From: Clostridia bacterium
Lineage (GTDB): Bacteria > Bacillota > Clostridia > UMGS1883 > UMGS1540
Assembly (NCBI GenBank): GCA_017436645.1
Contig: JAFSCR010000025.1
Location: 543 to 64,542, forward strand
Length of the DNA: 64,000 nt
Reading direction: 5' to 3'
Part shown: positions 33,423-48,480 of the stretch, piece by piece
Numbering within the stretch: position 1 is the first letter of the stretch
Layout of the letters: the number at the start of each line of letters is the position of its first letter
Notes under the pieces: model-generated
Databases searched by the model: none
What the model was told of the DNA's origin: nothing
What the model saw: the letters and a program-made list of their open reading frames with translations, nothing else
Translations under genes and position numbers: made by a program

Positions 33423-34865
33423 TTATTTCCAGTTTTGAAAGGGGTACCCGTCGGGCACGGGATTTGCAATGCCGGGAAGGGCAACCGCTTCCAGTCTGTC
33501 CGTAATTTCGCCGTAGGCGGCACGGTAATGCACGGCAGATTTCGTTATAATAATTTTATGTTCCTCAGGGCGTATGCCGTGAGAATAAAATACTTCCGTA
33601 TCCCACGGCTGACGGGGAATGGATGCGATAAGCACCGTATTCTCTTCGATTTCCACAACTGCCGTTTTGCCGTGTTTGATGATTTCTCCCGGGGCAATTT
33701 TGGCTTTCGCCACATATTTGCCGTCCGAAATCATTTTTACGTATGCGGTAACGTCCAATGGTCCGCCTGAAAGGAGGGGGTCACTTTTGCCGCCAAGGGC
33801 AAGGCGCACCGTACTTCCCACACCTGCCGCTTCGCATTTCGTAACGCTTTCCGGGTCAACAATGGTGGCAAGGATGGTATTGCGGATGCCTCTTTTCAGT
33901 ATTTCTCTTAAAATATGGGTGGAATCGCTGAAGGCACCGGCACCGGGATTGTCGGAAGCGTCAGCAATGACGAGGGGCTTATGGGAAGAAAGTGCTTTTT
34001 CCAAAACTTCGTCTAAAGTGGGGAACGTTCTTTTTAATGTGGGGGTTCTTTCGGAGATAAAGATAAAAAGCTCGTCCGCCATTTCCTCGGCAAGGGGGCG
34101 GTCCCCATCCGTCACGATGGTAATGCCCATGCCCATCTCCTCTATATCTGCGGCAAAAAAGCCGTGGCAAAAGCCGGGGAAAAGAACGCCCTTCGTCTTT
34201 TTCATTTCTGCCGTTTTATCATAAATACATTTCATTTCCGGCTCTTCACTCGGAAAAAGGGGCAATAAATAAGGGACAAGGCGAAAAGCCATTTGGGGAT
34301 GTATTTTTCCGTCCAAAGTGTCCTGCATCATATGGGCGGCACGAAGCCCCGTTTTATATGTATCCGTGTGGGGATAGCACTCGTAAGGAATAAGTGCGGT
34401 GGCATTTTCCGCCATTTTTTTCGTGGTGTTGGAATGGAGGTCAAGGGAGACGATAATGGGCACATCCGCACCCACAGCCGTGCGGATTTCTTCCAGTAAA
34501 TCCCCTTCACCGTCGGGATGCCCCACCGCCACCATAGCACCGTGCAGGGCAAGGAGAACGCCGTCTACGGGCGCATTTTTTTCGATTGCGGAAAGGATTT
34601 CACGAAGGGCATAGTCAAAAACATCGCCCGTAACCGGCCCCGTGGGGTTTGCAACGAAATCCACCGTGGGGAGAAGGACAATATCGTCCCGGGTTTCAAA
34701 AACATCTATAAAGGCACCGATTTCACTGCCGACGCCCTTCTGGTTTTTCAAAATGCAGTCGCCCACGTCAAAACAAAGGTTCCGAAACATGGTTTCGTCC
34801 CCCGGTTTGGAGCAAAAGGAATTGGTTTCGTGCTGGAATCTGCCGATAATAACCTTTTTCTGCAT
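33423..34865 (-). CDS. M81 family metallopeptidase (MlrC-like)
   Basis: HETNSF, LHGAM, DGEG, LDLH-x-N, YPHTD, DNPGAG and KS-x2-HYRA motifs. Confidence 0.92.
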   Translation of the reverse strand: MQKKVIIGRFQHETNSFCSKPGDETMFRNLCFDVGDCILKNQKGVGSEIGAFIDVFETRDDIVLLPTVDFVANPTGPVTGDVFDYALREILSAIEKNAPVDGVLLALHGAMVAVGHPDGEGDLLEEIRTAVGADVPIIVSLDLHSNTTKKMAENATALIPYECYPHTDTYKTGLRAAHMMQDTLDGKIHPQMAFRLVPYLLPLFPSEEPEMKCIYDKTAEMKKTKGVLFPGFCHGFFAADIEEMGMGITIVTDGDRPLAEEMADELFIFISERTPTLKRTFPTLDEVLEKALSSHKPLVIADASDNPGAGAFSDSTHILREILKRGIRNTILATIVDPESVTKCEAAGVGSTVRLALGGKSDPLLSGGPLDVTAYVKMISDGKYVAKAKIAPGEIIKHGKTAVVEIEENTVLIASIPRQPWDTEVFYSHGIRPEEHKIIITKSAVHYRAAYGEITDRLEAVALPGIANPVPDGYPFQNWK

Positions 34866-34947
34866 CAGATTGCCTCCATTTTTCATATTATCTTCATTAT
34901 AGCACACTTTTTAGAAATATAAATAGTCTTTTTGGCAAAAAACATAG

Positions 34948-34977
34948 AAAAAGCGGCAAACGAGAGTTTGCCGCTTT
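34948..34977 (-). terminator. Intrinsic terminator
   Basis: AAAAGCGGCAAAC-GAGA-GTTTGCCGCTTT. Confidence 0.75.
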
Positions 34978-34991
34978 AAGCTCTTTTATTT

Positions 34992-36095
34992 TTATATGTT
35001 GTTTTCCCGTTTCCGGAATATTTTCTTTCTGAAAACAAGTACAATTACAATCACCAAGACAAGTGCTGCGCCGATGATGTAAAGCGTGATATTTCCTTTT
35101 CCTTCTATTACATTCACATCGAAGGAAAACTGATTTTCTTCGAGGAAATATGCATCATGAACGGTTGAAATGTATTCCACCTGCACATTTTTTCCGTCCT
35201 CGGAGAAATAAAGCATGGCAACATAGCCGCCGGGCCCGTATTTTTGGTCAGTTACCTGTGGGTCTACAAGCATTTCCGTTACCGTGTTGCCGTGTACCCC
35301 TTCTCTCTTATTTACAACAATTTTATCCGAAGGGATGTGTCCGGCAAGAACCATAGTGATGTTTTCGTGGTTTTTTACAAGCTTTTCCCAGATATCTTCT
35401 CCATCGTTACCATCCGACGAAACCTTATAGAAAGAACCGTTGCCACTCAGATATGCGTGGGTGACGATGATTACATTGTGGTCCGGATGGTCTTCAATGA
35501 CGCCGGCGGCCCAGGCAAGAATATCATCCCCCGGGTATGTATCAATATTCAGGGCCAGATATTTGATTTTACCAATATTAAATTTATGATACGTATAAAG
35601 CATGGTTTTATTGTAGCTGCCGCTTATTTTATCGGCATAATCTCCATATGGGAAAGCACCGATAAAGGTTTCCGGCGTGTCGTGATTGCCTCTTATATGC
35701 ATATTGGGAACGACCCCATCCAGCTTTTTAATTTCTTTTTTAGCCACAGCCCATTCTTTGGTGGTGGAAAAATATGTTATATCCCCAAGGCCAAACACAT
35801 ATTTTATCTTTTTTTCTTCTGCATTTTGTACAATCCAGTCATAAATGCAGGAAAGCTTGTCGGGATTATGGGCTGTAATGGTCTGGGTGTCACCAATGAC
35901 TGCAAAGGAATAGGCGTAGTCCCATACCGGCTCTTTGTCCTTTATCAGCATGCCGCTTTCGTGTTTTCCTACTTCGCCTTCTTCAGAAGCAGGGGTTTCT
36001 CCGGTGGCGAAAACAGTTGCCCCAAAGGAAAAACAAATGAAGAGGGTTAAAACGAGAGAAAGGATTCCTAAAAAGTGTTTTCGGGACGTTTTCAT
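34992..36095 (-). CDS. Exported, C-terminally anchored calcineurin-like metallophosphoesterase, paralog 1
   Basis: Signal peptide; GDTQ, GD, GNHD, TH and AGH metal motifs; C-terminal TM helix and basic tail. Confidence 0.87.
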   Translation of the reverse strand: MKTSRKHFLGILSLVLTLFICFSFGATVFATGETPASEEGEVGKHESGMLIKDKEPVWDYAYSFAVIGDTQTITAHNPDKLSCIYDWIVQNAEEKKIKYVFGLGDITYFSTTKEWAVAKKEIKKLDGVVPNMHIRGNHDTPETFIGAFPYGDYADKISGSYNKTMLYTYHKFNIGKIKYLALNIDTYPGDDILAWAAGVIEDHPDHNVIIVTHAYLSGNGSFYKVSSDGNDGEDIWEKLVKNHENITMVLAGHIPSDKIVVNKREGVHGNTVTEMLVDPQVTDQKYGPGGYVAMLYFSEDGKNVQVEYISTVHDAYFLEENQFSFDVNVIEGKGNITLYIIGAALVLVIVIVLVFRKKIFRKRENNI

Positions 36096-36201
36096 AATAA
36101 TCACTCCTTGACTTTTTGATTTAAGTTCAGTATAATAAAACCAACACAAAAAATCAATAGTGGCCAAAATTTTTCAAAATAATCAACAATAATCAAACGA
36201 G

Positions 36202-36960
36202 GTGTGGGCATTGTATCAGCAGGAACGAATGGATGAAATCATGAAAATCCTCAAAGAGAACCATTATGTCACGGTGGACTATCTTGTAAAAGAGATAAAA
36301 TACAGTCCCGCAAGCATCCGACGGGATCTTGTGCTTTTGGAAAAGCAGGGGCTTATCACGAGAAGCTATGGCGGCGTCGCCTATAAAGATGCCAACAGTT
36401 CTCCCTTCCGCTTTCGCCAACACAGTATGAAATCGGCAAAGAATGCCATTGCAAAAAAGGCGGCGTCCCTCGTACAAAACGGGGATATAATTTTTCTGGA
36501 CGGGTCATCAACCATCCAGTATATGGGGCAATTTCTCTTGGAAAAAAAGGGCATAACTGTAATCACCTGCAATATGCTCCTTGCAGATTTTTTAAGTGAA
36601 CACGGGATAAACACCTATTGTACCGGCGGCAGAGTCGTGGAATATCCGGGTATTTTAGGCGGTGAATATATGTTTATGTCTCTTGAAAATTTTAAGGTTG
36701 ATATTGCATTCTATTCGTCACACGCCATTGATTCTAAAGGGCAGATTCTTTTTATAAACGAACACGGCGTGCGCAGGCAAAAAGCCATCCGAAACTGCGC
36801 ACGGAAGCAGGCATATCTTTGCGGCAGCGATAAGTTTAACGGCGATGGCGGTTTTGTGGCCCTTTCGCTTTCTGAGGTGGACTATTTTGTAAGCGATGCC
36901 CAGCTTCCCGAAGAATTAAAACAGAAATTTCAATCCACAACGTTTCTCTGCACAAAATAA
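36202..36960 (+). CDS. DeoR/GlpR family transcriptional regulator
   Basis: S-x-ASIRRDL-x2-LE-x2-G-x3-RSYGG HTH; IFLDGSST. Confidence 0.92.
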   Translation: MWALYQQERMDEIMKILKENHYVTVDYLVKEIKYSPASIRRDLVLLEKQGLITRSYGGVAYKDANSSPFRFRQHSMKSAKNAIAKKAASLVQNGDIIFLDGSSTIQYMGQFLLEKKGITVITCNMLLADFLSEHGINTYCTGGRVVEYPGILGGEYMFMSLENFKVDIAFYSSHAIDSKGQILFINEHGVRRQKAIRNCARKQAYLCGSDKFNGDGGFVALSLSEVDYFVSDAQLPEELKQKFQSTTFLCTK

Positions 36961-36990
36961 GGGGATGTAAATAAAACTTACATCCCCTTT
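36961..36990. terminator. Hairpin terminator between convergent genes
   Basis: GGGGATGTAA-ATAAAAC-TTACATCCCC-TTTT. Confidence 0.7.
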
Positions 36991-36997
36991 TAATCTT

Positions 36998-38104
36998 TTA
37001 TATGTTGTTTTCCCGCTTCCGGAATATTTTCTTTCTGAAAACGAGGACAAGTACAATCGCCACTACAAGTGCTGCACCGATGATGTAAAGCGGAACGTAA
37101 CTTTTTCCTTCTATGACATTCACTTCGAAGGGAGACGGACTTTCATTGAGGACATATGCCTTGTGAACGGTTGAAATGTATTCCGTCTGCACCTTTTTTC
37201 CGTCCTCGGAAAAATAAAGCATTGCCACAAAGCCACCGGGCCCGTATTTCAAATCTACGCCCTGGGGGTCTACAAGGATTTCCGTAACGGTGTTTCCGTG
37301 CACCCCTTCTCTTTGGTGCACCTTGATATTATTCGTGTCCACATGTCCGGCGAGCACCATAACGATATTTTCGTGGTTTTTTACAAGCTTATCCCAAATT
37401 TCCGGCCCCAGGTTAGTGCCGTATTGGCCTAATTTTTTGTTATCATACAAAGAACCGTCAGGCTTCTTATAGATATGGGTTACGATAATTACGTTGTGGT
37501 CCGGATGGTCCTCAATAACGCCATTGGCCCAGGCAATAACGTCATCCGACGGGCCCAGATCAATATTCAGAGCCAGGTATTTGATTTTGCCGACTTTGAA
37601 TTTATGATATGTATATTGCATGGTGTTGTTGTAGCTGCCGCTGATTTGGTCGGCATATTCTTTGTATGGGAAAGCGAGGAGGAAGTCTTCCGGCTTGTCG
37701 TGATTTCCTCTTATATGCATATTGGGAACGACGCCGCGGAGCTTGTCGATTTCTTTTTTAGCCACATGCCATTCCCTTGTGGTGGAGTTGTCTGTTATAT
37801 CCCCAAGACCAAACACATATTTAATCTTTTTTTCATCCTTATTTTCCAAAATCCAGTCATAAATGCAGGAAAGCTTGTCGGAATAAAGGGATGTCATAAT
37901 CTGTGTGTCACCGATTAGCGCAAAGGAATATGCGTAGTCCCGTGCCGGCTCCTTGTCTTTTATAAGCATACCGCTTTCATATTCATTTTTGTCAGAAGAA
38001 TAGGTTTCTCCAGTGGCGAAAACAGTTGTTCCAAAGGAAAAACAAAGCATCAGGGTTAAAGCGAGGGAAAGGATTCTTAAAAGGTGTTTTCGGGATGAGT
38101 TCAT
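36998..38104 (-). CDS. Exported, C-terminally anchored calcineurin-like metallophosphoesterase, paralog 2
   Basis: Same motifs as 34992-36095 and an identical C-terminus VLVFRKKIFRKRENNI. Confidence 0.87.
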   Translation of the reverse strand: MNSSRKHLLRILSLALTLMLCFSFGTTVFATGETYSSDKNEYESGMLIKDKEPARDYAYSFALIGDTQIMTSLYSDKLSCIYDWILENKDEKKIKYVFGLGDITDNSTTREWHVAKKEIDKLRGVVPNMHIRGNHDKPEDFLLAFPYKEYADQISGSYNNTMQYTYHKFKVGKIKYLALNIDLGPSDDVIAWANGVIEDHPDHNVIIVTHIYKKPDGSLYDNKKLGQYGTNLGPEIWDKLVKNHENIVMVLAGHVDTNNIKVHQREGVHGNTVTEILVDPQGVDLKYGPGGFVAMLYFSEDGKKVQTEYISTVHKAYVLNESPSPFEVNVIEGKSYVPLYIIGAALVVAIVLVLVFRKKIFRKRENNI

Positions 38105-38222
38105 AATGTTCACTCCTTAATTTTATTTGACATATTTTAATTATATTGCTATAATGAGTGTGAGTCAATGGAACAAATTGACTATATATTCAGGTTTATT
38201 GCTATTTTTAGGGGGTGCTGAT

Positions 38223-39035
38223 ATGATTTTTAACGCATATCAGGATACGAAGAAGGGTATTTCCGGCGTTTCGATTGTGAGCAGTGGACATATCTTTGCC
38301 CAAAAGGGAAGAAAAATCAGTCGTCCCAAAGGAAGATCCGATTATCTGCTGTTTTATGTAGCAAAAGGCAAAGAACTTTTTTTTCTTAAAAACGAAACAG
38401 TTGTCGATGCAGGCGCATTTATATTTTTCAGACCCTTTGAAAAAGAAGAGCATAAACATATGGAAAATGAAACGGGCGAATTTTATTATGTTCGTTTTAA
38501 TGCGCCCGAGGATTTTGATTTGCTTGGTTTTGAAAGTTCCACTGTGTATCATACAAAGCCAAGCACAAAAGTGCGGGACATATTTGAAGAAATGATCAGC
38601 GAACTGCAAACAAAACAACCGGCGTACGAAATGCTCTGCGCCGCAAAGCTTTTTAATATTATTTCCCTCTTACGCAGAAAAACAGAAAAAGAATCAGCTC
38701 CCCAAGGCAGATATTTTGATAAAATCTCTTTTGTAATTCAAAAGATGAACAAAGAATATCAGAAAAGCTACACTTTAGACGAATATGCAACAATGTGTAA
38801 TATGAGTAAGTTTCATTTTTTAAGGGTGTTTAAGGGTATCACAGGCACATCTCCCCTTGCATACAGAAACAATATAAGGCTTGACCATGCAAAGGAACTG
38901 CTAATCGACACGAATAACCCCATAAATGAAATCGGAAGGAGCGTAGGCTTTTCCTCTGACACCTATTTCTGCGATGCCTTCAAGGCAGAAGTCGGCATGT
39001 CACCGGGTCAATACAGAAAAACTGCGAAAAAATAA
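38223..39035 (+). CDS. AraC family transcriptional regulator
   Basis: RPKGR-x-DY sensor motif; MSKFHF-x-RVFK and GFS-x3-YF-x3-FK-x3-GMSP-x2-YRK. Confidence 0.92.
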   Translation: MIFNAYQDTKKGISGVSIVSSGHIFAQKGRKISRPKGRSDYLLFYVAKGKELFFLKNETVVDAGAFIFFRPFEKEEHKHMENETGEFYYVRFNAPEDFDLLGFESSTVYHTKPSTKVRDIFEEMISELQTKQPAYEMLCAAKLFNIISLLRRKTEKESAPQGRYFDKISFVIQKMNKEYQKSYTLDEYATMCNMSKFHFLRVFKGITGTSPLAYRNNIRLDHAKELLIDTNNPINEIGRSVGFSSDTYFCDAFKAEVGMSPGQYRKTAKK

Positions 39036-39284
39036 GGGGATGTTAAAAAATGTCCGGATCGCAAAAAGGCAAAAAAATGATGCTTTTAAAACAGCACGTT
39101 CATGTTGTTTTTCATTCTTTTTGACAAAAATCTCAAATTTTCGATTTTTCTTTTAAAAACAAGCCTTTTTGCTACGAACAACCTTCGTCGCTCGGCGTAC
39201 CGATGTACGCCATCGGATAACCCAAAGCAGGATTTTTCCTGCTTTGGCTCAGTTTGTCCGTTCCAAACTATTTTTTCTCATCCC
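39036..39284. mobile_element. Putative MITE-like element with imperfect terminal inverted repeats
   Basis: GGGATGTTAAAAAA at the left and TTTTTTCTCATCCC at the right; internal hairpins; the left end resembles 24578-24614. Confidence 0.5.
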
Positions 39285-39291
39285 AAAGTTT

Positions 39292-39332
39292 GGGGCTGTT
39301 TAAAAAAGTTAACTTTTTAAACAGCCCCTTTT
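39292..39332. terminator. Perfect palindromic hairpin/terminator
   Basis: GGGGCTGTTTAAAAA-AGTTAAC-TTTTTAAACAGCCCC-TTTT. Confidence 0.7.
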
Positions 39333-40502
39333 TTATTTCGTTCCAAAAGCCTTTTCCATTCTGCTTAGTGCCTCTTTTATGTCCTCATATTTCGAAGCGT
39401 AGCATATTCTTATATATCCTTCGCCGTCAGGCCCGAAAGCATCGCCGGGGGAGGTTACTACGTGTGTTTTTTCAAGAATGTATTCTGCTGTCTCACGGCT
39501 ACGCATACCAAAGCCTGTAATGTTAGGAAACACATAAAATGCACCTTTGGGGCAAAGGCAGGAAAATCCGTTAATTCTGTTCAGACCTTCAACAATCAGT
39601 TTGCGGTTTCTGTCGTAGTATGCCACCATTTCCCGAACATCTTTTTCACCATTATAAATCGCTTCAACTGCGGCAAGCTGCATGGGTTCGGGAACGCTTG
39701 CAATCATATTTTCGTGGAGCTTTATAAGGTTTTCCGTAATCTTTTCATTTGCACATATATATCCTACTCTAAAGCCTGTCATAGCAAAGGTTTTGGAAAA
39801 GCTGTTGATTGTTAATACGTACTCTTCAATACCGGGGATTGAAGCCAGACTTTTTTGCTCGAAACCGTCATACACTAATTTTTCATATGGTTCATCGGAA
39901 ATGATAAAAATTTTATACTTTTTCACAAGCTCTGCTATTTTTATTAAATCCGCATAATCAAGGACACCACCTGTAGGATTGGAGGGGGAGTTTATAATAA
40001 TCAGCTTGGTTTTATCTGTAATTAGTGGTTCAATCACATCAGCTGTCATTTTAAAGTCATTTTTTTCATCCACTTTTGCGTAAACGGTTTTAGCATTTAC
40101 CATGTCAATCTGACCACGGTAATCCGGCCAGTTTGGGCCTTGTATAATAACCTCATCACCGGGATTGACAAGCGTTACCATAGAGAGCATAAGCGCCTGC
40201 GTGGCACCTGCCGTTACAATTAAATTTTTATCCGGATCACACTTAATCCCATTTTCTTTTTCAAGCTTATATGCAATAGCATCACGAAGCTCTTTAATTC
40301 CGGCGTTGGGGGTGTATTTTGTTTTTTTGTCTTTTAGACCTTTAATCCCTGCTTCAATAATATGGTCGGGCGCCGTAAAGCCCGGTTCCCCTAAAGTAAG
40401 GTTAATGGAATCATCATATTTTTTGGCAAGCTCAAACATCCTTCTTACACCGCTCGGAAGTGCGTTTTGCGCTGCTGTACTTAATATGTTTTTGTTATGC
40501 AT
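39333..40502 (-). CDS. Class I/II PLP-dependent aminotransferase
   Basis: LGEP, NSPSNPTG, SDE-x-Y, NSFSKTFAMTGFRVG and PKGAFY motifs. Confidence 0.93.
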   Translation of the reverse strand: MHNKNILSTAAQNALPSGVRRMFELAKKYDDSINLTLGEPGFTAPDHIIEAGIKGLKDKKTKYTPNAGIKELRDAIAYKLEKENGIKCDPDKNLIVTAGATQALMLSMVTLVNPGDEVIIQGPNWPDYRGQIDMVNAKTVYAKVDEKNDFKMTADVIEPLITDKTKLIIINSPSNPTGGVLDYADLIKIAELVKKYKIFIISDEPYEKLVYDGFEQKSLASIPGIEEYVLTINSFSKTFAMTGFRVGYICANEKITENLIKLHENMIASVPEPMQLAAVEAIYNGEKDVREMVAYYDRNRKLIVEGLNRINGFSCLCPKGAFYVFPNITGFGMRSRETAEYILEKTHVVTSPGDAFGPDGEGYIRICYASKYEDIKEALSRMEKAFGTK

Positions 40503-40505
40503 TTT

Positions 40506-41657
40506 TTAAATTTCCTTCCTGATTTTTTTGTATATTCGGGGTACGCGCTTTGAAATCACACAGGTCACTTCACCGCTGACACTTTCGCCAAATTCGCTCA
40601 GCGCCTGCGCTGAAATGGTATTTGTGCCGTCAAAACCCAAAAGGATAACCTCGTCGCCGATTTTCGCTCCGGGTACGTCGGTGACATCTATCAAAAGGTA
40701 ATCCATGGCAACCCTGCCGAGAACCCGAACACGCTTTCCGCCCACCAGAACGTGGGATTTATTGGAATAAACACGTCTGTATCCATCGGCATAGCCGCAG
40801 GTAACCATAGCAATGCGCATATCTTTTTCCGCTCGGAAGGTACAGCCGTAGCTTACAGCCTCCCCTTCCTCGATTTCGCTGATTTGCGAAATGAAGCTTG
40901 CCCATTTTAAAGCGGGCTGTAAACCAAGCTCCCGAACACTTTCGTCGCTGTAAGACATACCAAGAGGCATCATGCCGAGCCGAACCATATCCAGCTGATA
41001 TTCTGTATGCACCAGAGAGCCGCCTGTTGAAGAAGCGTGTCGCAGCCCGATCGTAAACCCGTTTTCATCAAGCGTTTCTAAAACGTTTATAAAACGGTTA
41101 AACTGAAGCTGTGTAAATTCCAGTTCCCAGTCAAGCTGCCCTTCGCCGCAGGCAAAATGGGTGTACGTTCCCGTGAAATTAAGGTTTGGAAGGCTGTATA
41201 TGTATTTAATTTCTTCTATGGCATCGTTGTTTTCACGCCACCGTATGCCGGAGCGGTTCAGCCCCGTATCGATTTTTAAATGACAGTCACACCTTAAGCC
41301 CGCCTCGCCTAGCTTTGCCGAAACCTTCTCCGCGTATGCGACGCTGCCAACCGTAAGCGTAAGATCGTTTTTTGCGGCAGTTTCGATTTGCCCTTCCGGG
41401 AGGGGACCAAAAATAAGGATGGGTTTATCGCTCTGCAAACGTATCTGCAAGCCTTCCTCAATGGTGGCGACTGCATACCAGTCTGTAAAGGTTTCGTAAG
41501 CAGGGACAACGCCTTCTATTCCATGCCCATACGCGTCAGCCTTTAAAACGGACATTATTTTTTTATTTTTAAATGTATCTTTTATAATTTTGCCGTTATG
41601 CACAATACTTCCTAAATCTATCTGTGCATACGTTCTGTATATTTCATTTGCCTTCAT
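40506..41657 (-). CDS. Alanine racemase family amino acid racemase, substrate uncertain
   Basis: VLKADAYGHG (PLP Lys), HLKIDTG-x2-R, YTHFA, VSYG, GYADG and GRV-x-MD motifs. Confidence 0.9.
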   Translation of the reverse strand: MKANEIYRTYAQIDLGSIVHNGKIIKDTFKNKKIMSVLKADAYGHGIEGVVPAYETFTDWYAVATIEEGLQIRLQSDKPILIFGPLPEGQIETAAKNDLTLTVGSVAYAEKVSAKLGEAGLRCDCHLKIDTGLNRSGIRWRENNDAIEEIKYIYSLPNLNFTGTYTHFACGEGQLDWELEFTQLQFNRFINVLETLDENGFTIGLRHASSTGGSLVHTEYQLDMVRLGMMPLGMSYSDESVRELGLQPALKWASFISQISEIEEGEAVSYGCTFRAEKDMRIAMVTCGYADGYRRVYSNKSHVLVGGKRVRVLGRVAMDYLLIDVTDVPGAKIGDEVILLGFDGTNTISAQALSEFGESVSGEVTCVISKRVPRIYKKIRKEI

Positions 41658-41659
41658 AT

Positions 41660-43240
41660 TCAACGTCCACTCCGTCTCAAATATTTTCCGTTATAGACGC
41701 CCGTCAGTTCATTGTTTTCAAGCACCAATTCCCCGTCCACATATACCTGATAAATGCCTTCATTGGGCTTAAACGGATTTGCAAAGTCAAGATTATCGGT
41801 GATGGAATCGTAGTCAAAAAGCACCAAATCCGCATCATACCCTGCCGCAATGCGCCCTTTGCCGCGCAGCCCGTACGTTTCGGCAGGCATAGAGGTAATC
41901 CGCCTGATGGCTTCTTCCCTTGAAAGAAGTCCGCGTTTACGAATATAGTGACCGAGATACCGCGGAAAAGTGCCGAATGCCCGCGGATGTGCAGAAAGGT
42001 CCCCCGGCTTATAAATGCCGTCAGAGCCGACCATACATTTCGGGTGCTTTAAAATCATTTCCACATTGTCCTCGCACATGGAAAAACGACATTCGTACAC
42101 CACGCCCCGGTTTGCCTTTAAAAGGTATACCACGGCATCAAAGGGGGATATGCCAAGTTCTTCTCCCACCTGCGCATACGTTTTTCCGATTGCCCACGGC
42201 GTTTCTTTTGCCCGGACAATCAGGAAGTTTTCAAGACCCACATAATACATGCTGTTGTCCCACGAAGGGTCATTTATTTCAAAAATTTCCCGGTAGATTG
42301 CCTTTACAACGAGGGGATTATCGAGGCTTTCTGCAAATGCATCCACGCCTTTTGACAAAAACTGCGGTGGGATGGCGCTGAGGGTAGTGGTTGACGCCGC
42401 CGTGTAAGGATATGCATCCAGCGTAATATGGAGGCCGTCTTTGTTGGCAGCATCAATCATGCCGAGTGCCCTTTCGCATCGCCCCCAGAATTCTTTCCCC
42501 ACACATTTGAAATGGGAAATGTTTACGGGCACGTTGCCATCTCTTGCAATATTGATACATTCCTGCACGCTGTCAAAAAGTCCCATGGATTCAGAACGGG
42601 AATGTGTAACGTAAAGTCCGCCCCATTCGCCGGCGGTTTTTGCCAGCATTGTAAGCTCTTTTGTATCGGAATAGATGCCGGGAACATAGGAAAGCCCTGT
42701 GGAAAAGCCTGCGCTTCCGCTCTTTATCTCTTGCTCCAGCATTTTCTGCATTCTTTCTATTTCATCGGGACTTGCTTTCCGTGCCTCTGTGCCCATTACC
42801 ACGCCGCGCACCAGACCGTGCCCTGTGAAATAACATTGATTTGTGCCAAGTTCCAGCTCGTTTACAGCATCAATGGCGGAGGCCATATCCGGAAAATACC
42901 GTAATGCGCCGCCGTTAACAGATTTTCTGGTTTCGCTTTTCATAGAGCCGTCATCGGGACTTATGGAGTGCCCGCATTGCCCTGCGATTTCCGTTGTTGC
43001 ACCCATACGAAGAACGTGCTCCCGGTGCGGGTCTTTAAAAATGGATTGGTCGCTGTGGCTATGCGAATCAATAAAACCGGGGGCAAGTGCAAGCCCCTCT
43101 GCATCCACAATGCGCTTTGCCGGATGGGTTTCTTCTCCTATATAAACAATCTTTCCGTCGGTGGCGGTTACGTTGGAATAATATGCATCCTTGCCGCTGC
43201 CGTCGTAAATAAGGGCGTTTCTGATTTCTAAATCATACAT
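41660..43240 (-). CDS. N-acyl-D-amino-acid deacylase (D-aminoacylase)
   Basis: APGFIDSHSHSD, GQCG, STGL-x-Y-x-PG, H-x-R-x-E, ISHFK, DAYPY, GSDG and HPRAFGTFPR motifs. Confidence 0.92.
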   Translation of the reverse strand: MYDLEIRNALIYDGSGKDAYYSNVTATDGKIVYIGEETHPAKRIVDAEGLALAPGFIDSHSHSDQSIFKDPHREHVLRMGATTEIAGQCGHSISPDDGSMKSETRKSVNGGALRYFPDMASAIDAVNELELGTNQCYFTGHGLVRGVVMGTEARKASPDEIERMQKMLEQEIKSGSAGFSTGLSYVPGIYSDTKELTMLAKTAGEWGGLYVTHSRSESMGLFDSVQECINIARDGNVPVNISHFKCVGKEFWGRCERALGMIDAANKDGLHITLDAYPYTAASTTTLSAIPPQFLSKGVDAFAESLDNPLVVKAIYREIFEINDPSWDNSMYYVGLENFLIVRAKETPWAIGKTYAQVGEELGISPFDAVVYLLKANRGVVYECRFSMCEDNVEMILKHPKCMVGSDGIYKPGDLSAHPRAFGTFPRYLGHYIRKRGLLSREEAIRRITSMPAETYGLRGKGRIAAGYDADLVLFDYDSITDNLDFANPFKPNEGIYQVYVDGELVLENNELTGVYNGKYLRRSGR

Positions 43241-43365
43241 AATAAATCCTCCGTCTTTAAAATCACATATCCGGCAAAACAATTCTTGCGAAAAGCTTTA
43301 CCCCATCACACATAACAAAGGAAGCTGCTTTAATAATCATAAAATTTTCCTGTATCTATAAAGTT

Positions 43366-44517
43366 TCATCCAAAATTCCGGCACTGCATAACATATGCAC
43401 AAAATGCCTGTATGGCTATTTTCATACCTTCTTCATCAATACAGAAGTCATTTCTGTGGGCAAGAGCTGTGCAACCGGTTTCCTCGTTTCTTGTCCCAAA
43501 CCGGAATATCATGCCGGGTACTTTCTCAAGATACCATCCAAAATCTTCGCTGCTCATTCTTTGTGGCATATCCTGCATATTTAAGCCTGCATTTCTTGCT
43601 GTTTTCTTAAATTTTTCTGTAATAGTTTCATCATTATGAACTGGCCCTGTACTCATATTCCATATAATTTCCACGCTGCCGCCATATCGGTTAGCGATTT
43701 CGCTGCAAATATTGCGAACATTTCTTTCAACTCGTTTTGAGAAATCCATATTATAAAAGCGGAAAGAAATATCCATTTGGCATAAATCCGCAATAACATT
43801 ATGTACATGACCGCCCTGGAAGTGCCCCACAGACCAGATGTATTTTAATTCTCCGGCCTCTTCCTTAACCATAGCTTTCATTTTGTTGTACGCTTCAACA
43901 GCCATTGCAACAGCATCTATACCATATTCAGGCAATGCTGCGTGGGAGGTACGACCTTTAAAACGTATGGTTGCAGGAATACACGCAGCCATATAATCAC
44001 CATAGCATATTCCTATTTTGCCGGTGTTAATTGCATTATCACAATGGGTGCAAATTATATGGTCAACACCGTCGCAAACACCATTTTCTACCATCATTTT
44101 TGCACCGCTTACTGCCCCTTCTTCGCTTGGCTGAAAAATAAGTCTTACTCTGCATGTGAGTTTGTTTTCATTTTCTTTTAAATATTTGGCAACTGCCAGA
44201 AGTACTGCCGTATGCGAATCGTGTCCACAAGCGTGCATCTGTCCCGAAATTTTAGACTTATAAGGCACATCTGTTTTTTCTTCAACGGGGAGAGCATCCA
44301 TATCAGCCCGCAGGGCAATCATTTTATCACCCTGCCCAAGATGCGCCACAACACTTCCTTTTCCATATTCATAAGTATACGGAATGCCGATTTTATCAAG
44401 TTCTTCCGATACCAGCTTAACGGTTTTGTCAAGTTCAAAACCTATTTCCGGATATTGATGGAGCTGTCTTCTTACAGATACTGCATATTCATACAATTCG
44501 TTTGAAACAAAATCCAT
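43366..44517 (-). CDS. M20D family amidohydrolase
   Basis: RR-x-LHQYPE, LRADMDALP, MHACGHD-x-H, FQP-x-EEG and SEDF motifs. Confidence 0.93.
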   Translation of the reverse strand: MDFVSNELYEYAVSVRRQLHQYPEIGFELDKTVKLVSEELDKIGIPYTYEYGKGSVVAHLGQGDKMIALRADMDALPVEEKTDVPYKSKISGQMHACGHDSHTAVLLAVAKYLKENENKLTCRVRLIFQPSEEGAVSGAKMMVENGVCDGVDHIICTHCDNAINTGKIGICYGDYMAACIPATIRFKGRTSHAALPEYGIDAVAMAVEAYNKMKAMVKEEAGELKYIWSVGHFQGGHVHNVIADLCQMDISFRFYNMDFSKRVERNVRNICSEIANRYGGSVEIIWNMSTGPVHNDETITEKFKKTARNAGLNMQDMPQRMSSEDFGWYLEKVPGMIFRFGTRNEETGCTALAHRNDFCIDEEGMKIAIQAFCAYVMQCRNFG

Positions 44518-44518
44518 C

Positions 44519-44986
44519 TTATTTCCCCTCCGCTTTTTCCATACTCGGTAAAATCGTTGGAGAAAATTTATGCTCCATTAAAGAAATCATGGTGTGACTT
44601 TGCATAACACCTTTTATTTTTTTAATACACAAAATTTTCTCTTCAAGGGACTCTATGTCCTTGGCACAGATTTTAAGCATATGGTCATATTCTCCGGTCA
44701 CCGAATAACATTCCAATACATCAGGGTCATTGTTTGCATATTTTATAAGCGATTTGATACTGTCCCCGTATTGCATGACGATAAAAACAAATGCCGTAAT
44801 GGTCTTATCTAACTTTTTGGGATTTGTCACGATTGTAAAATAATCTATGATGCCCTCTTTTTGCATGCGGAGAATTCTTTTGTTGACAGCCGGCACAGAC
44901 AGATTGACCATATTGCTGATTTCTGTTGCAGTAGTATTTGCATCTCTGGAAAGAATTTCTAAAATCTTTTTGTCTGTTATATCCAT
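44519..44986 (-). CDS. Lrp/AsnC family transcriptional regulator
   Basis: MD-x2-DKKIL-x2-L, LS-x-PAV-x2-RI HTH and ECY-x-VTGEYD. Confidence 0.93.
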   Translation of the reverse strand: MDITDKKILEILSRDANTTATEISNMVNLSVPAVNKRILRMQKEGIIDYFTIVTNPKKLDKTITAFVFIVMQYGDSIKSLIKYANNDPDVLECYSVTGEYDHMLKICAKDIESLEEKILCIKKIKGVMQSHTMISLMEHKFSPTILPSMEKAEGK

Positions 44987-45138
44987 ACTTTGCGCCCTCC
45001 CGTTTCGGTTTTAAATAAATTATAGCATATAGCAATAAATAAGCCAATATATTTCGAATAATAAGAGCGGAAGTTAACTGTAATTGCAAATTTATTAAAT
45101 TTTGCTCGAGTTGCATTCTGTTTTTGGGGAAGGAACAC

Positions 45139-45169
45139 AAAAATGCTCGCCTTTATAGACGAGCATTTT
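45139..45169 (-). terminator. Intrinsic terminator after spoIVB fragment 2
   Basis: AAAATGCTCGCC-TTTATA-GACGAGCATTTT; nearly the same hairpin occurs at 47003-47038. Confidence 0.75.
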
Positions 45170-45171
45170 AC

Positions 45172-45297
45172 TTATTTTTTATTTTCCGCCAGCATATTCT
45201 CGATAAACACCCCGTATCCTCTCGTTGGGTCATTCACAAACACATGAGTTACTGCACCAACTAATTTTCCATTCTGCACGATGGGGCTACCACTCAC
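45172..45297 (-). pseudogene. spoIVB: Displaced 3'-end copy of spoIVB (fragment 2)
   Basis: Reads (V)[40 protein letters not shown], against [43 protein letters not shown] in the intact gene. Confidence 0.93.
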
Positions 45298-45305
45298 GAC
45301 TGTTG

Positions 45306-46229
45306 TCAATGGTGGACAACAGTTTTACTTTTTTCTGATGTGTAATTTACAATGTAAATTCCAAAACTCACAAGCAATAATGCAACAATATACTGCCATG
45401 TGAATATATTCTCTTTCAGAAACAGTCCTGAAAGTATTGTGCCGGAAACAGGAATAACAAAATTATAAACACTTAATTTTCCTATGGGGTAGTTTTTCAA
45501 AAGCATGCTCCACAGAGTAAATCCTGCAGAAGAAACCAGTATAAGATACAGCAAAACAATAATTCCGGGGAGATTAACTGTTATTTCTCCACTATATCCG
45601 AACACTCCTGTGATGATCAATAAAAATCCACCAATCAACAAATTATAAGCAGTTACGGTAAAGCTATTATTTAGCTGTGAAGCTTTTTTGTTTATTGCGG
45701 AACCTATAACAAAAAAGGTTCCGGCAACCAATATAAGTCCTTCTCCCCAAAAAGAGATTTTTTCCACACCGCTATTTGCAAAACAAGCAATGACTACACC
45801 TGAAAATCCAATAAGGCAACCGGCAATTTTTTTGAAATTCAACTTGTCATCAGGGTAAATAAAGTGTGCTAATATTATAGCTATAAACGCCGATGCCGAA
45901 TTCACAACAGAACCGGATGCGCCTGTTGTATTTGACAAACCAACATAGAAGAATATGTATTGCATATATGTATATGTCAACCCAAGAAAAAAAACATTAA
46001 TCCAATTCCCTTTTTTAACGGCCGGAAATTTTTTCTGTTTTAATGAATCAATGATTAAAACTATAACTCCTGATATAAAAAACCTGATTCCAGCATAAAG
46101 AATTTTTGAAAATACATCATCAGATATGTTAAAAAATTTATATCCTAACTTAATCATCGGAAATGCGCTTCCAAATAAAACATTACAGAATACTGCTACC
46201 AAAACAGCCCTCATTGTTAATTTATTCAT
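45306..46229 (-). CDS. DMT/EamA family transporter
   Basis: About ten TM helices; GSAFP-x-IK-x-GY, AGIRF, FFY-x-GL and IPV-x-G-x-ILS-x-LFL-x-E motifs; AT-rich. Confidence 0.9.
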
Positions 46230-46938
46230 AATAATCCTCTGATTTACTTTTTTTATTTGCAATTGTTTTAATATTACCAATTACATTTTTTATATGTGTT
46301 TCCATGGTTTTAAACGCCTTTTGTGCATCACGTTCTGCAATTGCATCAGCTATTTCCTGATGTTCTAAAACTGCAGCTTTTCCGTTGTTTTCAACTGTAA
46401 ATAAGTTTTTCTTACATTCCATTGACGCTTCGTACAGTTGCTTATAAACCCTTATGTAAACTTCGTTATGTGCACAGGTAGCTATGCAATTATGAAACTT
46501 ATTATCAGACTCAATCATCCCTATGATATCGTGATTCTTATATGCCTTTTCAAAAAAAGAAAGTATGCCGAAAAGCGTGAATATTTCATCTTCAGTTGCT
46601 CGCTCTGCCGCATATTTGGAGACAGTGGGTTCAATTCCGAGTCTGAACTCTGAAATCTCAAGGTAATCATCCTCTTTCGAAAAAATGCTGTCTACGGCTG
46701 TTTTATTAAGCATCGACTCATCACAAGACGCAACAAAAGCACCTTTTCCCGGTTTCAATTCTAAAAAACCTATTGCCTGCAACACTTTCATCGCTTCACG
46801 CACAGTAGTTCTGCTTACTTTAAACTTATCACACACCTCATTTTCAGAAAGATACTTCTCGCCTTCTTTATAAGTACCTGAAAGTATGTCGGATTTTATT
46901 TCTCTTATAGTTTCTTCGATTTTAGAAAATTTCTTCAT
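46222..46938 (-). CDS. GntR/FadR family transcriptional regulator
   Basis: SE-x-E-x4-F-x-VSRTTVREA HTH, GKGAFV and an FCD domain (D-x2-FH, EH-x2-I). Confidence 0.93.
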   Translation of the reverse strand: MKKFSKIEETIREIKSDILSGTYKEGEKYLSENEVCDKFKVSRTTVREAMKVLQAIGFLELKPGKGAFVASCDESMLNKTAVDSIFSKEDDYLEISEFRLGIEPTVSKYAAERATEDEIFTLFGILSFFEKAYKNHDIIGMIESDNKFHNCIATCAHNEVYIRVYKQLYEASMECKKNLFTVENNGKAAVLEHQEIADAIAERDAQKAFKTMETHIKNVIGNIKTIANKKSKSEDYYE

Positions 46939-46951
46939 ATCAACTCTCCAT

Positions 46952-47001
46952 ATTGTATGACATCATACAATTATAATATCACGTCCCTTTTAGTTTGTCA
47001 A
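46952..47001 (-). promoter_or_regulatory. SigA promoter with an adjacent FadR-type operator (probable autoregulation)
   Basis: Minus strand TTGACA-17-TATTAT followed by the palindrome ATTGTATGA-N2-TCATACAAT (46952-46971). Confidence 0.7.
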
Positions 47002-47002
47002 C

Positions 47003-47038
47003 AAAAAATACTCGTCCAAATTACATAGACGAGCATTT
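47003..47038 (-). terminator. Intrinsic terminator after spoIVB fragment 1
   Basis: AAAAAATACTCGTC-CAAATTACATA-GACGAGCATTT; shares ATAGACGAGCATTT with the 45139-45169 hairpin. Confidence 0.7.
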
Positions 47039-47041
47039 AAG

Positions 47042-47092
47042 TTATTTAATTTTTTCAGATTCTGTCAACATATTCTCAATAAATACCCCGTA
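47042..47092 (-). pseudogene. spoIVB: Displaced short 3'-end copy of spoIVB (fragment 1)
   Basis: Reads [16 protein letters not shown], matching YGVFIENML of the intact gene with synonymous changes. Confidence 0.85.
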
Positions 47093-47102
47093 CGTGCTGT
47101 TA

Positions 47103-47263
47103 ATGAATTGACAACCCTGCTGTCATGAATTGGCTTCGCCATGAATTCTCGCTCCGCTCCATGAATTGAATTGCCTTTTCATGCACCGAAAGGTGCAATT
47201 CATGAGCCAAAAGGCTCAATTCATGAAACTGGAAGTTTCAATTCATGCCGTAAGGCAATTCAT
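47103..47263. repeat. Array of small hairpins separated by CAATTCATG/CATGAATTG linkers (REP-like), copy 1
   Basis: ATGAATT units at 47103-47172 face four hairpin-AATTCAT units at 47181-47263; the array overlaps the spoIVB stop codon. Confidence 0.85.
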
Positions 47264-48480
47264 TCTGCCCCCTCTGCCGCCGCCAGCATATTCTCGATAA
47301 ACACCCCGTACCCACGTGTTGGGTCATTGACAAATACGTGTGTTACGGCACCAATGAGTTTTCCGTTCTGCACAATGGGGCTTCCGCTCATGCCCTGCAC
47401 AATACCGCCCGAAAGAGAGAGAAGGCGCTCGTCGGTAATGCGGATGACCATATTTTTATTACTGTCCTTTTTATGGGGAAATATTTCCTGAATTTCTGCG
47501 GCATAGCCTACAGGTGCGCCGCCGGCAATGTCGGTATACACGGTGGCGGAGCCTTTTTCCACCTGGGTGCTGACGCCGATGGGAATGCGAGGGGCCGAGG
47601 GAAGACTTTCCCGTTTGCCGTAAAGACCGAGATGGGTGTTTTTTGAAATGGTGCCGAGGGTGTCTTTTCCGAATACACCGCAAATTTCTCCCGGGGCACC
47701 CGGTTCACTTTTGGTAATGAAAGCAATGGAGCAGTCTGTAATACTGCCGCCTGCAGGCTCTAAAACGCCCCCCGTTTCAAAATCTTCAATGGCGTGACCG
47801 AGAGCACCGTAAACGCCGGTTTCCGGCTGACAAAACGTAACCGTTCCCACCCCTTGTGCGCTTTCCTTTACCCAAAGGCCGATTTTATAGCTTCCGCCGT
47901 CCCCATAATATACGGGGGTGATGACGGTGTCCTGTATCTTGCCGTCTCTTGAAACGGTAAGGGTAATGGGCGCACCGCCGCTTTCTTTTACTGCCCTGTC
48001 CAGTGCATCCGTTCCGGAGAGGGGCTCGTGATTCAGTTTCAGAATTCTGTCCCCTGTTCGGATGCCGGCCTCTTTTCCGGGGCATATGCGCCTCTCGCCG
48101 GGGATTTCACTCATGGCCACCACAATAACGCCCTGCATATAGAGCTTTATGCCTACGGTTTCGCCGCCCAGAATCACAGCCTGCGGGTCCACCACCTGAA
48201 TGGTGGCGGTTTTTCGGAGAAGACCAAAGACGGAAAAATCCACATTGTATGCCCCTGTTTTCTGCGGCGTCAGAAATGCTTTATTTCCGTTTTTTTCAAA
48301 TAAAAAACCGTCCTCCGCCCCATAGGGCGTAAAGAAGGCCGGCAAGGAATGCGCTTCGCCTTCGAGCATGGTAAACTGCCCGGGCAAAAGCGAAAACTGC
48401 TGAAGAAGGAACACGGCCGACGATATAAGAAGCACCGCACTCCCTTTCAGCAGAATTTTAAATTTTCGCATTTTTCTCAC
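47260..48480 (-). CDS. spoIVB: SpoIVB serine peptidase (S55, PDZ domain)
   Basis: PDZ-like AGI-x2-GD-x-I, G-x-GTVTF, YGALGH-x-I-x-D and [30 protein letters not shown] motifs. Confidence 0.96.
   Translation of the reverse strand: MRKMRKFKILLKGSAVLLISSAVFLLQQFSLLPGQFTMLEGEAHSLPAFFTPYGAEDGFLFEKNGNKAFLTPQKTGAYNVDFSVFGLLRKTATIQVVDPQAVILGGETVGIKLYMQGVIVVAMSEIPGERRICPGKEAGIRTGDRILKLNHEPLSGTDALDRAVKESGGAPITLTVSRDGKIQDTVITPVYYGDGGSYKIGLWVKESAQGVGTVTFCQPETGVYGALGHAIEDFETGGVLEPAGGSITDCSIAFITKSEPGAPGEICGVFGKDTLGTISKNTHLGLYGKRESLPSAPRIPIGVSTQVEKGSATVYTDIAGGAPVGYAAEIQEIFPHKKDSNKNMVIRITDERLLSLSGGIVQGMSGSPIVQNGKLIGAVTHVFVNDPTRGYGVFIENMLAAAEGAE

Follow-up and report, generated by a model that had tools for sequence, protein, structure and literature searches.

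The spoIVB locus and its displaced 3′ ends

The window analyzed here is a stretch of 64,000 nucleotides from a Clostridia bacterium (GenBank assembly GCA_017436645.1, contig JAFSCR010000025.1, positions 543 to 64,542), in which the sporulation protease gene spoIVB is followed by two displaced copies of its own 3′ end. The gene itself is intact (47260-48480, minus strand) and encodes a protein of 406 aa with a PDZ domain and a full-length Peptidase_S55 match in Pfam. Both displaced tails lie on the minus strand as well. Copy A is a full tail, beginning VSGSP (45172-45297; nhmmer E-value 4e-40), and copy B is truncated at its 5′ end (47042-47093; E-value 0.005).

The 112 nt of copy A at 45186-45297 are the counterpart of the resident 3′-end unit at 47280-47391 (minus strand), with an identity of 86% between 45186-45296 and 47280-47390. 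Seventeen of the 112 nt differ, 15 of them in synonymous codon changes, and the remaining two replace amino acids (M to V and I to V). The homology begins at the Met codon of the GMSGSP motif, and the longest identical run, of 31 nt, lies at the end of the tail, where 45186-45216 matches 47280-47310. The core match of copy B is 42 nt long (47051-47092) and codes for 16 residues of the SpoIVB tail. A preliminary description of this DNA had reported two extra copies of the spoIVB 3′ end downstream of the intact gene, the start of the long homology at the GMSGS motif, the 17 differences with 15 synonymous, and the identical run; the recount reproduced all of these, coordinates included. Three copies of the pattern TACGGGGTNTTTATNGAGAATATG, a core 24-mer, are present in the 1.75-Mb genome, all of them at the spoIVB locus, and the reversed-pattern control gave no occurrence.

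Each tail is followed by a terminator, a match to a sigma-70-like promoter and a set of genes led by a regulator. The terminator behind copy B (47038-47006, minus strand; 13 pairs and a T run) and that behind copy A (45169-45140, minus strand; 13 pairs) have ATAGACGAGCATTT in common, bearing out the earlier observation that the same terminator and a regulator-led module stand behind each copy. The module behind copy B comprises a GntR/FCD regulator (46222-46938, minus strand; Pfam) and an EamA transporter of the drug/metabolite transporter type (45306-46280, minus strand; likely ATG start at 46229). The promoter before the GntR gene (46973-47001, minus strand) is a consensus match only, with TTGACA, a 17-nt spacer and TATTAT with an additional TG, 11 of 12 positions agreeing. 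The module behind copy A contains genes for an Lrp/AsnC regulator, an M20 peptidase, an amidohydrolase, an alanine racemase and an aminotransferase (39333-44986, minus strand).

Between the EamA gene and copy A lies a segment that is assigned below to the P arm of a serine-recombinase attR site (45298-45335, minus strand). It consists of an A-rich tract followed by TGTTGTCCACCATTGACAACAGTC, and is succeeded on the minus strand by a G (45297) and a central TG (45295-45296); the TGA stop codon of EamA falls inside it, within TTGACA. The 112-nt repeats at 47280-47391 and 45186-45297 bracket the GntR-EamA unit, and just these two genes, with no gene for integration or transfer, are found between them. 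Pfam searches of the window's contig for tyrosine recombinases (PF00589) and serine recombinases (PF00239) gave no match; DDE transposases were not searched for. An nhmmer profile of the P arm and tail detected no remnants in the window beyond the three sites.

The front of copy B is replaced by an array of units, each a CATGAATTG plus a 12-nt hairpin, that runs from the spoIVB stop codon to the copy (47100-47259, minus strand), and its P arm is lost or degenerate. A metagenome contig (run X6) holds a full-length version of copy B. To judge from these sequences, copy B is a tail cut by a dispersed repeat. The 9-nt CATGAATTG units are spaced by hairpins whose sequences vary among units with complementarity kept. 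The repeat was matched 15 times in the genome, including contigs C5, C10, C12, C20, C28 and C31, and had a depth of 138 to 1547 in four gut metagenome runs, indicating high copy number. Rfam returned sub-threshold matches only, among them one to Gut-1 RNA at 47171-47248 (31 bits, E-value 0.004).

Displaced tails and a conserved motif in related genomes

When 41 genomes belonging to the same order were searched at the protein level, eight had displaced spoIVB tails, 12 in total. The first query residue matched is 362-364 in 11 of these tails; the remaining one is truncated at the start of its contig. Wherever the contig permits a judgement, the tails are located downstream of spoIVB on the same strand. 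Four tails are arranged in tandem in one genome of the same genus, with spacings of 4148, 4327, 3452 and 3312 nt (G003; G and L numbers denote genomes and loci of relatives, G000 being the genome of the window), and two in another genome (G013). The earlier suggestion that spoIVB is a hotspot at which units accumulate in tandem is supported by the sequences of relatives, in which insertion at spoIVB recurs, and in which the cassettes are modular and vary in array position.

A conserved 24-nt motif, missed by the preliminary description, directly precedes all 11 of the 11 displaced tails, and the intact gene lacks it at the homologous place. Its consensus is TGTTGTCCC(C/A)TATTGACA(A/T)CA(C/G)TC; in the window, it is situated upstream of copy A at 45298-45321, behind the A-rich tract. 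When five genomes were scanned, the motif was found next to tails only (nine sites, two further matches being reverse-strand reads of these palindromic sites). With a pattern scan in which each prokaryote species was represented by a single genome, at least 128 sites of motif plus fragment were found, in at least 120 stretches and at least 108 assemblies of gut Clostridia. The listed sites come from Oscillospiraceae, Acutalibacteraceae, Lachnospiraceae, Ruminococcus, Flavonifractor, Congzhengia and other Clostridia, of animal and human guts. Among the matches listed, positions left free by the pattern were also conserved, namely C at -18 (118 of 120), C at -17 (115 of 120) and C at -2 (109 of 120), as was the A-tract at -34 to -28.

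The coding character of the tails is retained. An open frame was kept in 108 of 113 tails among the matches listed, and codon differences between tails and the nearest gene tail comprised 1371 synonymous and 555 non-synonymous changes (71% synonymous, with 23% expected by chance); comparisons of gene with gene gave 728 and 198, respectively. The fragments therefore look like tails of functional alleles, in line with the proposal made for the long copy from the window alone. A swapping of SpoIVB C-termini, which had also been proposed, would carry little functional meaning, because the tails encode nearly the same protein.

A decayed tail remnant, ATTGAGAATATGTTGGCAGAAGTTA, was noticed in one further genome (L174, G004), approximately 140 nt past the spoIVB stop codon and behind a small direct repeat. 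The protein search had missed it, so the tail counts are lower bounds. Two contigs were also seen to break inside the spoIVB tail, one at its end (L009, G005:C5) and one at its start (L041, G010:C86). Repeated tails are expected to break short-read assemblies, and arrays are, thus, probably under-counted in metagenome-assembled genomes.

Serine recombinases and split spoIVB genes

Among the matches listed, 113 sites have sequence context, and at 18 of them the nearest upstream open reading frame (ORF) belongs to one cluster of large serine recombinases (LSRs). These proteins combine Resolvase, Recombinase, Zn_ribbon_recom and DUF4368 domains, and their genes are on the same strand as the motif, 2-183 nt away from it. 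One to three LSR genes are present per site, often two or three in tandem. An LSR gene adjoins the site in relatives, but not in the window itself. The earlier characterization of the array as integrase-less holds for the arrays as such, in which neither PF00589 nor PF00239 was matched; the system is not recombinase-free in kind, since elsewhere LSR genes beside the same motif split spoIVB.

In the LSR-linked genomes, the spoIVB match stops at residues 364-367 in 4 of 4 and in 12 of 16 genomes (16 of 20 together); of the other four, one has an intact spoIVB and three cannot be judged. The gene is split exactly at the Met codon of GMSGSP, and in the left junction a stop codon directly follows the Met codon. 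In one genome (G041), the 5′ part of spoIVB and the tail are found on one contig and the same strand, approximately 72 kb apart. In the 16 genomes with a split gene, it is also the sole spoIVB found (G041:C1:106714-179987; L164-L168; G046-G060).

The junctions of four such genomes (G041-G044) allowed the attachment sites to be reconstructed. In attL, CAGGGC ATG of the gene runs into TGAGTGATATATAATAGGGACAACA, while attR consists of TGTTGTCCCATATTGACATCAACCG, the TG, and then AGCGG of the gene. Joining the element-side halves of attL and attR yields a 52-bp imperfect palindrome with 25-nt arms and TGTTGTCCC at both outer ends, and the central TG of this reconstructed attP is also present in spoIVB, as befits an LSR site of approximately 50 bp with a shared dinucleotide. 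This palindromic join around a shared TG identifies the motif as the probable P arm of a serine-recombinase attR. We infer that the 24-nt motif corresponds to the P half-site of an LSR attP, a unit of motif plus tail being an attR, and that attB in the window would be located inside spoIVB with its central TG at 47389-47390, within the ATG of GMSGSP. The base before the TG is always A in genes, whereas among the 120 matches listed it is G, C, A or T in 77, 31, 10 and 2 fragments, respectively, which fits a crossover at the TG.

One LSR-linked genome (G053) has an intact spoIVB, beyond which come approximately 34 kb, then broken LSR ORFs, and after these a P arm and a tail. The duplicated stretch covers 300 nt from the TG, made up of 115 nt of coding sequence and approximately 180 nt past the stop codon. 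By its sequence, this locus is a link between the split-gene and restored-gene forms. A further record, retrieved as the single one from a scan of viral contigs (G045; L169/L170), is a 31.8-kb IMG/VR entry rated complete with three tandem serine recombinase genes at its spoIVB-tail end. Its ten largest ORFs encode the three LSRs, HD, DUF6744, VWA and DUF4367 proteins, a 1719-aa RHS-repeat protein and two proteins without a family, with no phage hallmark among these ten.

Modularity and cargo of the cassettes

The recombinase-less units are small, 2-6 kb, compared with 30-70 kb for LSR-bearing elements. The same cassette can occupy different array positions in different genomes, and homology between such cassettes ends at the tail start or at the P arm. 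The last cassette of the four-tail array (G003), with genes for an AraC/PocR regulator, an EamA transporter and one more protein, matches the cassette in first position in another assembly at 94-95% identity, from 6 nt inside the tail to the end of the next tail; in other cassette pairs, the homology breaks at the first base of the P arm. Unrelated cargo ORFs stop 0-30 nt short of an intact P arm.

Among the cargo genes that recur are those for an AraC/PocR regulator together with a glycyl-radical enzyme and its activase, and those for DeoR, MatE, an FAD oxidoreductase and DUF4417. The downstream module of the window has a counterpart at another locus (L082), where a P arm and tail are followed in the same order by Lrp (77% aa identity) through to the aminotransferase (90%). 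The cassette that comes first at that locus is not the one of the window, and the P arm before its Lrp module is another variant. Several genes of the window's extra segment (described below) have close homologues directly behind a P arm and tail elsewhere, those of its AraC and DeoR genes at four other loci. Searched for at the DNA level in the 87 genomes of the order, the GntR-EamA cassette gave the window's own copy and short, chance-sized matches only.

History of the locus and homologous exchange

In the closest relative (G006; SpoIVB 67% identical), spoIVB is directly followed by an M81 peptidase gene, the homologue of window positions 33423-34907, after which the same genes as in the window continue to about 22 kb. 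By this gene order, the window contains approximately 12.4 kb of extra DNA (34908-47259), of which the repeats bound only the proximal 2.1 kb. The 22-kb island proposed earlier could not be upheld at that size, and low G+C is mostly limited to 43-47 kb and 38-40 kb. The nhmmer profile found no remnant at the distal edge of the 12.4-kb segment. The arrangement fits repeated, independent insertion between spoIVB and whatever was its neighbour at the time, in which case the older boundaries would have eroded. The absence of spo0A from the window, remarked on in the preliminary description, is correct (the gene is on contig C12), but spo0A is not the native neighbour in this genus, as the M81 gene of the closest relative indicates.

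Two metallophosphoesterase paralogues (34992-36167 and 36998-38113) are also present in the extra segment, each paired with a divergent regulator gene (DeoR, 36202-36960; AraC, 38127-39035). At the 3′ end the two paralogues are near-identical, with a match between the sequence at about 35000 and that at about 37006.

The 31-nt block that is identical in the gene and copy A codes for YGV, which is common to the closest relative, while most other tails read YGI, and the sequence on both sides of the block is diverged. We read this block as a probable gene-conversion patch between the gene and copy A. Mosaic tails were also found among 14196 pairs of units, an identity of at least 95% being confined to the 3′ half in nine pairs and to the 5′ half in five, and some of these pairs are a gene and a fragment of the same genome. 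Judging by such patches, homologous exchange between the repeats is evident. Two genomes of different genera (L039, G007, and L178, G018) share, at ~96% identity, a block that spans the last ~60 nt of spoIVB, the terminator and the beginning of the gene behind it, the rest of spoIVB being only 30-60% identical at the DNA level, which looks like a recent transfer of a downstream module.

A model of insertion and accretion, and its alternatives

Taken together, the data are best accounted for by a model, to which we assign a probability of roughly two in three, in which the repeated tails are attR-type scars left by members of an LSR family inserting at an attB site in spoIVB, combined with accretion. 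The attB of this LSR family would be located within spoIVB, the crossover dinucleotide being the TG of the GMSGSP Met codon, and the cassettes would have entered by LSR recombination at that TG. In this model, spoIVB would remain whole because every cassette supplies a replacement for its 3′ end, and with each insertion the tail already present would be pushed downstream, so that a tandem array builds up. The units of the window would be cassettes that lack a recombinase, in which a tail and its terminator precede a promoter, a regulator gene and cargo, with a P arm at the far end; they may be LSR elements that have lost their recombinase genes, or may have been moved by an LSR acting in trans. 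Once in place, the 112-nt repeats also recombine homologously, giving rise to gene-conversion patches and cassette exchange. With no cognate LSR in this genome, the array is most likely fixed now.

Several results weigh against this model. No P′ arm was found in the arrays (GGGACAACA in P′ orientation), and the cassette site there has a P arm on one side and a B′-like arm on the other; canonical phage LSRs are not known to recombine such a P/B′-like site with attB unaided. The best LSRs detected in six array genomes were only 27-33% identical to the spoIVB-linked ones, the closest LSR in the genome of the window (27-32% identity) adjoining a tRNA gene. The P-arm variant of the window (..TTGACAACA..) occurred at 2 LSR sites and at 57 others among the matches listed. 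Conservation of the motif in the scan set is overstated, as the pattern itself fixes much of the motif and selects well-kept sites, and decayed remnants exist (copy B and the one in G004). The present tail of the window's gene is native-looking, with a G+C content of 0.53 and the lineage-specific YGV of the closest relative, so a history in which the last cassette brought the tail requires an added gene conversion. In the cross-genus pair, finally, the identity jumps ~55 nt inside the tail rather than at the TG.

A stronger form of the model, in which the units constitute a serine-recombinase-driven cassette system of integron-like logic, mobilized in trans by the LSR of a helper element, is held here only tentatively and is doubtful. 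The units would then stack at the catalytic-serine codon of a sporulation protease with no harm to it, and P arms would be kept intact by selection for mobility, which would explain why, in many genera of gut Clostridia, unrelated cassettes have cargo that ends sharply at the arm. This abrupt junction of unrelated cargo with an intact P arm is one result that favors such helper-driven movement; weighing against it are the low identity (27-33%) of the best LSRs in the six array genomes to the spoIVB-linked ones, the near absence of LSRs beside the P-arm variant of the window among the matches listed, and the homologous exchange between repeats.

That exchange is also the core of the main competing explanation, in which one or a few ancient LSR insertions made the P arm and tail module, and RecA-type recombination alone has spread it since, the LSR playing no role in the arrays. 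The conserved 112-nt tail, together with its terminator, would serve as portable homology, either for Campbell integration of circles excised between repeats or for double crossovers. The mosaic tails (9 and 5 of the 14196 pairs), the identical 31-nt patch of the window with its lineage-specific YGV, the boundary inside the tail in the G007/G018 pair, the lack of a cognate LSR found in array genomes, and the separate grouping of the P-arm variant that lacks an LSR all agree with this explanation. Nevertheless, we consider it unlikely. It offers no cause for the sharp 0-30 nt boundary between unrelated cargo and an intact P arm, and the occurrence of two P-arm variants before the same Lrp module in two genomes suggests independent site-specific hits. 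A stretch of 112 nt at ~80-86% identity is, moreover, a poor substrate for recombination. If motif and tail were instead a working unit in their own right, kept by selection as a 40-aa peptide starting at GTG, CTG or ATG, or as a terminator or operator that closes the modules, the prevalence of open frames would be explained (108 of 113 fragments among the matches listed, with GTG, CTG, ATG or TTG, each a possible start, as first codon), as would the 10-pair hairpin and T run into which the window's motif folds on the plus strand. This is very unlikely, as the sequences of the arm contain nothing like a Shine-Dalgarno sequence, the inverted repeat is broken at about half of the sites (A or T at -7 in 60 and 60 of the 120 listed, uncompensated), and the tail is present without the rest of the protease; in LSR-bearing genomes, motif plus tail is plainly the missing end of the split gene.

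An assembly artefact, in which the identical 31-nt block caused the chromosome to be joined with a strain variant or with a circle that had been excised, is barely credible, even though Logan contigs of one run (X3) break exactly at 45187-45216 and 47152-47281, and the graph could also be resolved into an empty site plus a circle. Three pieces from that run, which is an independent sample, match without a difference and at equal depth (9.32, 9.35 and 8.47), although contigs cannot prove joins; the 31-nt repeat is far shorter than a read, and the same architecture recurs in 8 of the 41 related genomes and in at least 108 assemblies from many pipelines. Pieces of the cassette were also present at 96-100% identity in three further runs, which may represent the same species and consist of assembled contigs that break at the repeats. 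Just as improbable is an integron- or Xer-like mechanism, in which a tyrosine recombinase would use the inverted repeat TGTTGTC-N7-GACAACA as an attC- or dif-like site. The arrays do look like cassettes, and arms of 7-9 bp around a 7-nt spacer resemble tyrosine-recombinase core sites. But PF00589 was not matched near any of five arrays, all linked recombinases found are serine recombinases, no such repeat is present to the left of the gene-proximal cassette, half of the listed sites have it in imperfect form, and the cassettes carry their own promoters and regulators. Integron membership, which is defined by an IntI gene with attI beside the array and by attC at the cassette ends, was rejected as well: PF00589 was without a match on or near the five arrays, and the cassettes end in an LSR P arm. 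A diversity-generating retroelement was considered and rejected because the differences are of mixed types, mostly synonymous and not adenine-specific; no reverse transcriptase was found among the 17 ORFs (33.4-52 kb) scanned with Pfam, of 121 window ORFs of at least 100 aa.

Significance and comparison with known systems

Under the insertion and accretion model, spoIVB would be an integration site in wide use among gut Clostridia and apparently not described before, for which the exact crossover point and the attP half-site can be given; a set of natural LSR/att pairs would thereby become directly testable. It would also explain the high variability downstream of spoIVB, where small regulated metabolic modules (transporters, glycyl-radical enzyme pairs, amino-acid enzymes) appear to be collected. 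No literature linking spoIVB to a serine recombinase or an intervening element was found in a search that left most subscription journals and supplementary tables outside, so a mention in print is possible. The word spoIVB does not occur in two papers on intervening elements (PMC4191935, PMC10747680), nor in the literature found on attB sites, prophages and integrases.

Sporulation genes are known targets of intervening elements, including skin in sigK, SPβ in spsM, and vfbin, vrin, gin and yin, as listed in PMC4191935, PMC10747680 and 10.1101/2022.02.25.481979. The LSR-bearing relatives resemble skin and SPβ in that a sporulation gene is split at a precise site with an LSR gene at one end of the element. 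The window differs from this type, as its spoIVB is unsplit, with 406 aa and a full S55 match. The known elements are described in mother-cell genes (PMC4191935), whereas SpoIVB is called forespore-expressed, and is mentioned only as a protease, in 10.1101/2022.02.25.481979. Excision in the forespore would remove the element from the germ line, and the split-gene relatives, thus, raise the question of how an intervening element is kept in a gene described as forespore-expressed.

Like those of integrons, the arrays grow by tandem addition of co-oriented cassettes next to a fixed site, every cassette ending in a site of recombination. Unlike integrons, they have no IntI-type tyrosine recombinase and no attC, and their cassettes have regulators, promoters and terminators of their own.

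Serine-recombinase-driven integrative and mobilizable elements (IMEs) are described, in PMC5704250, as having very short direct repeats and as disrupting their target genes. The spoIVB arrays, by contrast, combine a serine-recombinase site with a long gene-restoring repeat, an arrangement usually tied to tyrosine recombinases. The same source describes the accretion of cis-mobilizable elements (CIMEs) as an integration, followed by decay in which the att sites are kept and the integrase is lost, and then by a new adjacent integration (PMC5704250). This three-step model, known from CIMEs and tandem accretion (ICESt1/ICESt3 at fda, IMEs at tRNA genes), fits the arrays described here. Those systems use tyrosine recombinases, whereas the site here is that of a serine recombinase.

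Staphylococcal cassette chromosomes (SCC), including SCCmec and psiSCC at rlmH (orfX), and the composite islands there, provide an LSR-driven parallel (10.1101/336396; PMC13739063). Their insertion takes place at a single site close to where a conserved gene ends, and leaves that gene intact, as in the window. SCC arrays are likewise tandem elements, each bounded by a gene-end repeat, with some units devoid of recombinase genes. Differences from SCC are threefold: the target in spoIVB lies ~120 nt upstream of the stop codon, which requires a coding tail of 112 nt and a terminator to be carried instead of ~15-18 bp; the linked LSRs are encoded by one to three tandem genes and contain DUF4368; and relatives of the same LSR family split the target gene, which SCC does not. 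On these comparisons, the spoIVB arrays belong to neither the SCC nor the CIME family, while SCC/psiSCC arrays and CIME accretion, whose units are bounded by repeats of the kind that bracket the GntR-EamA unit, are the closest analogues in logic of the cassettes that appear to have gathered behind spoIVB.

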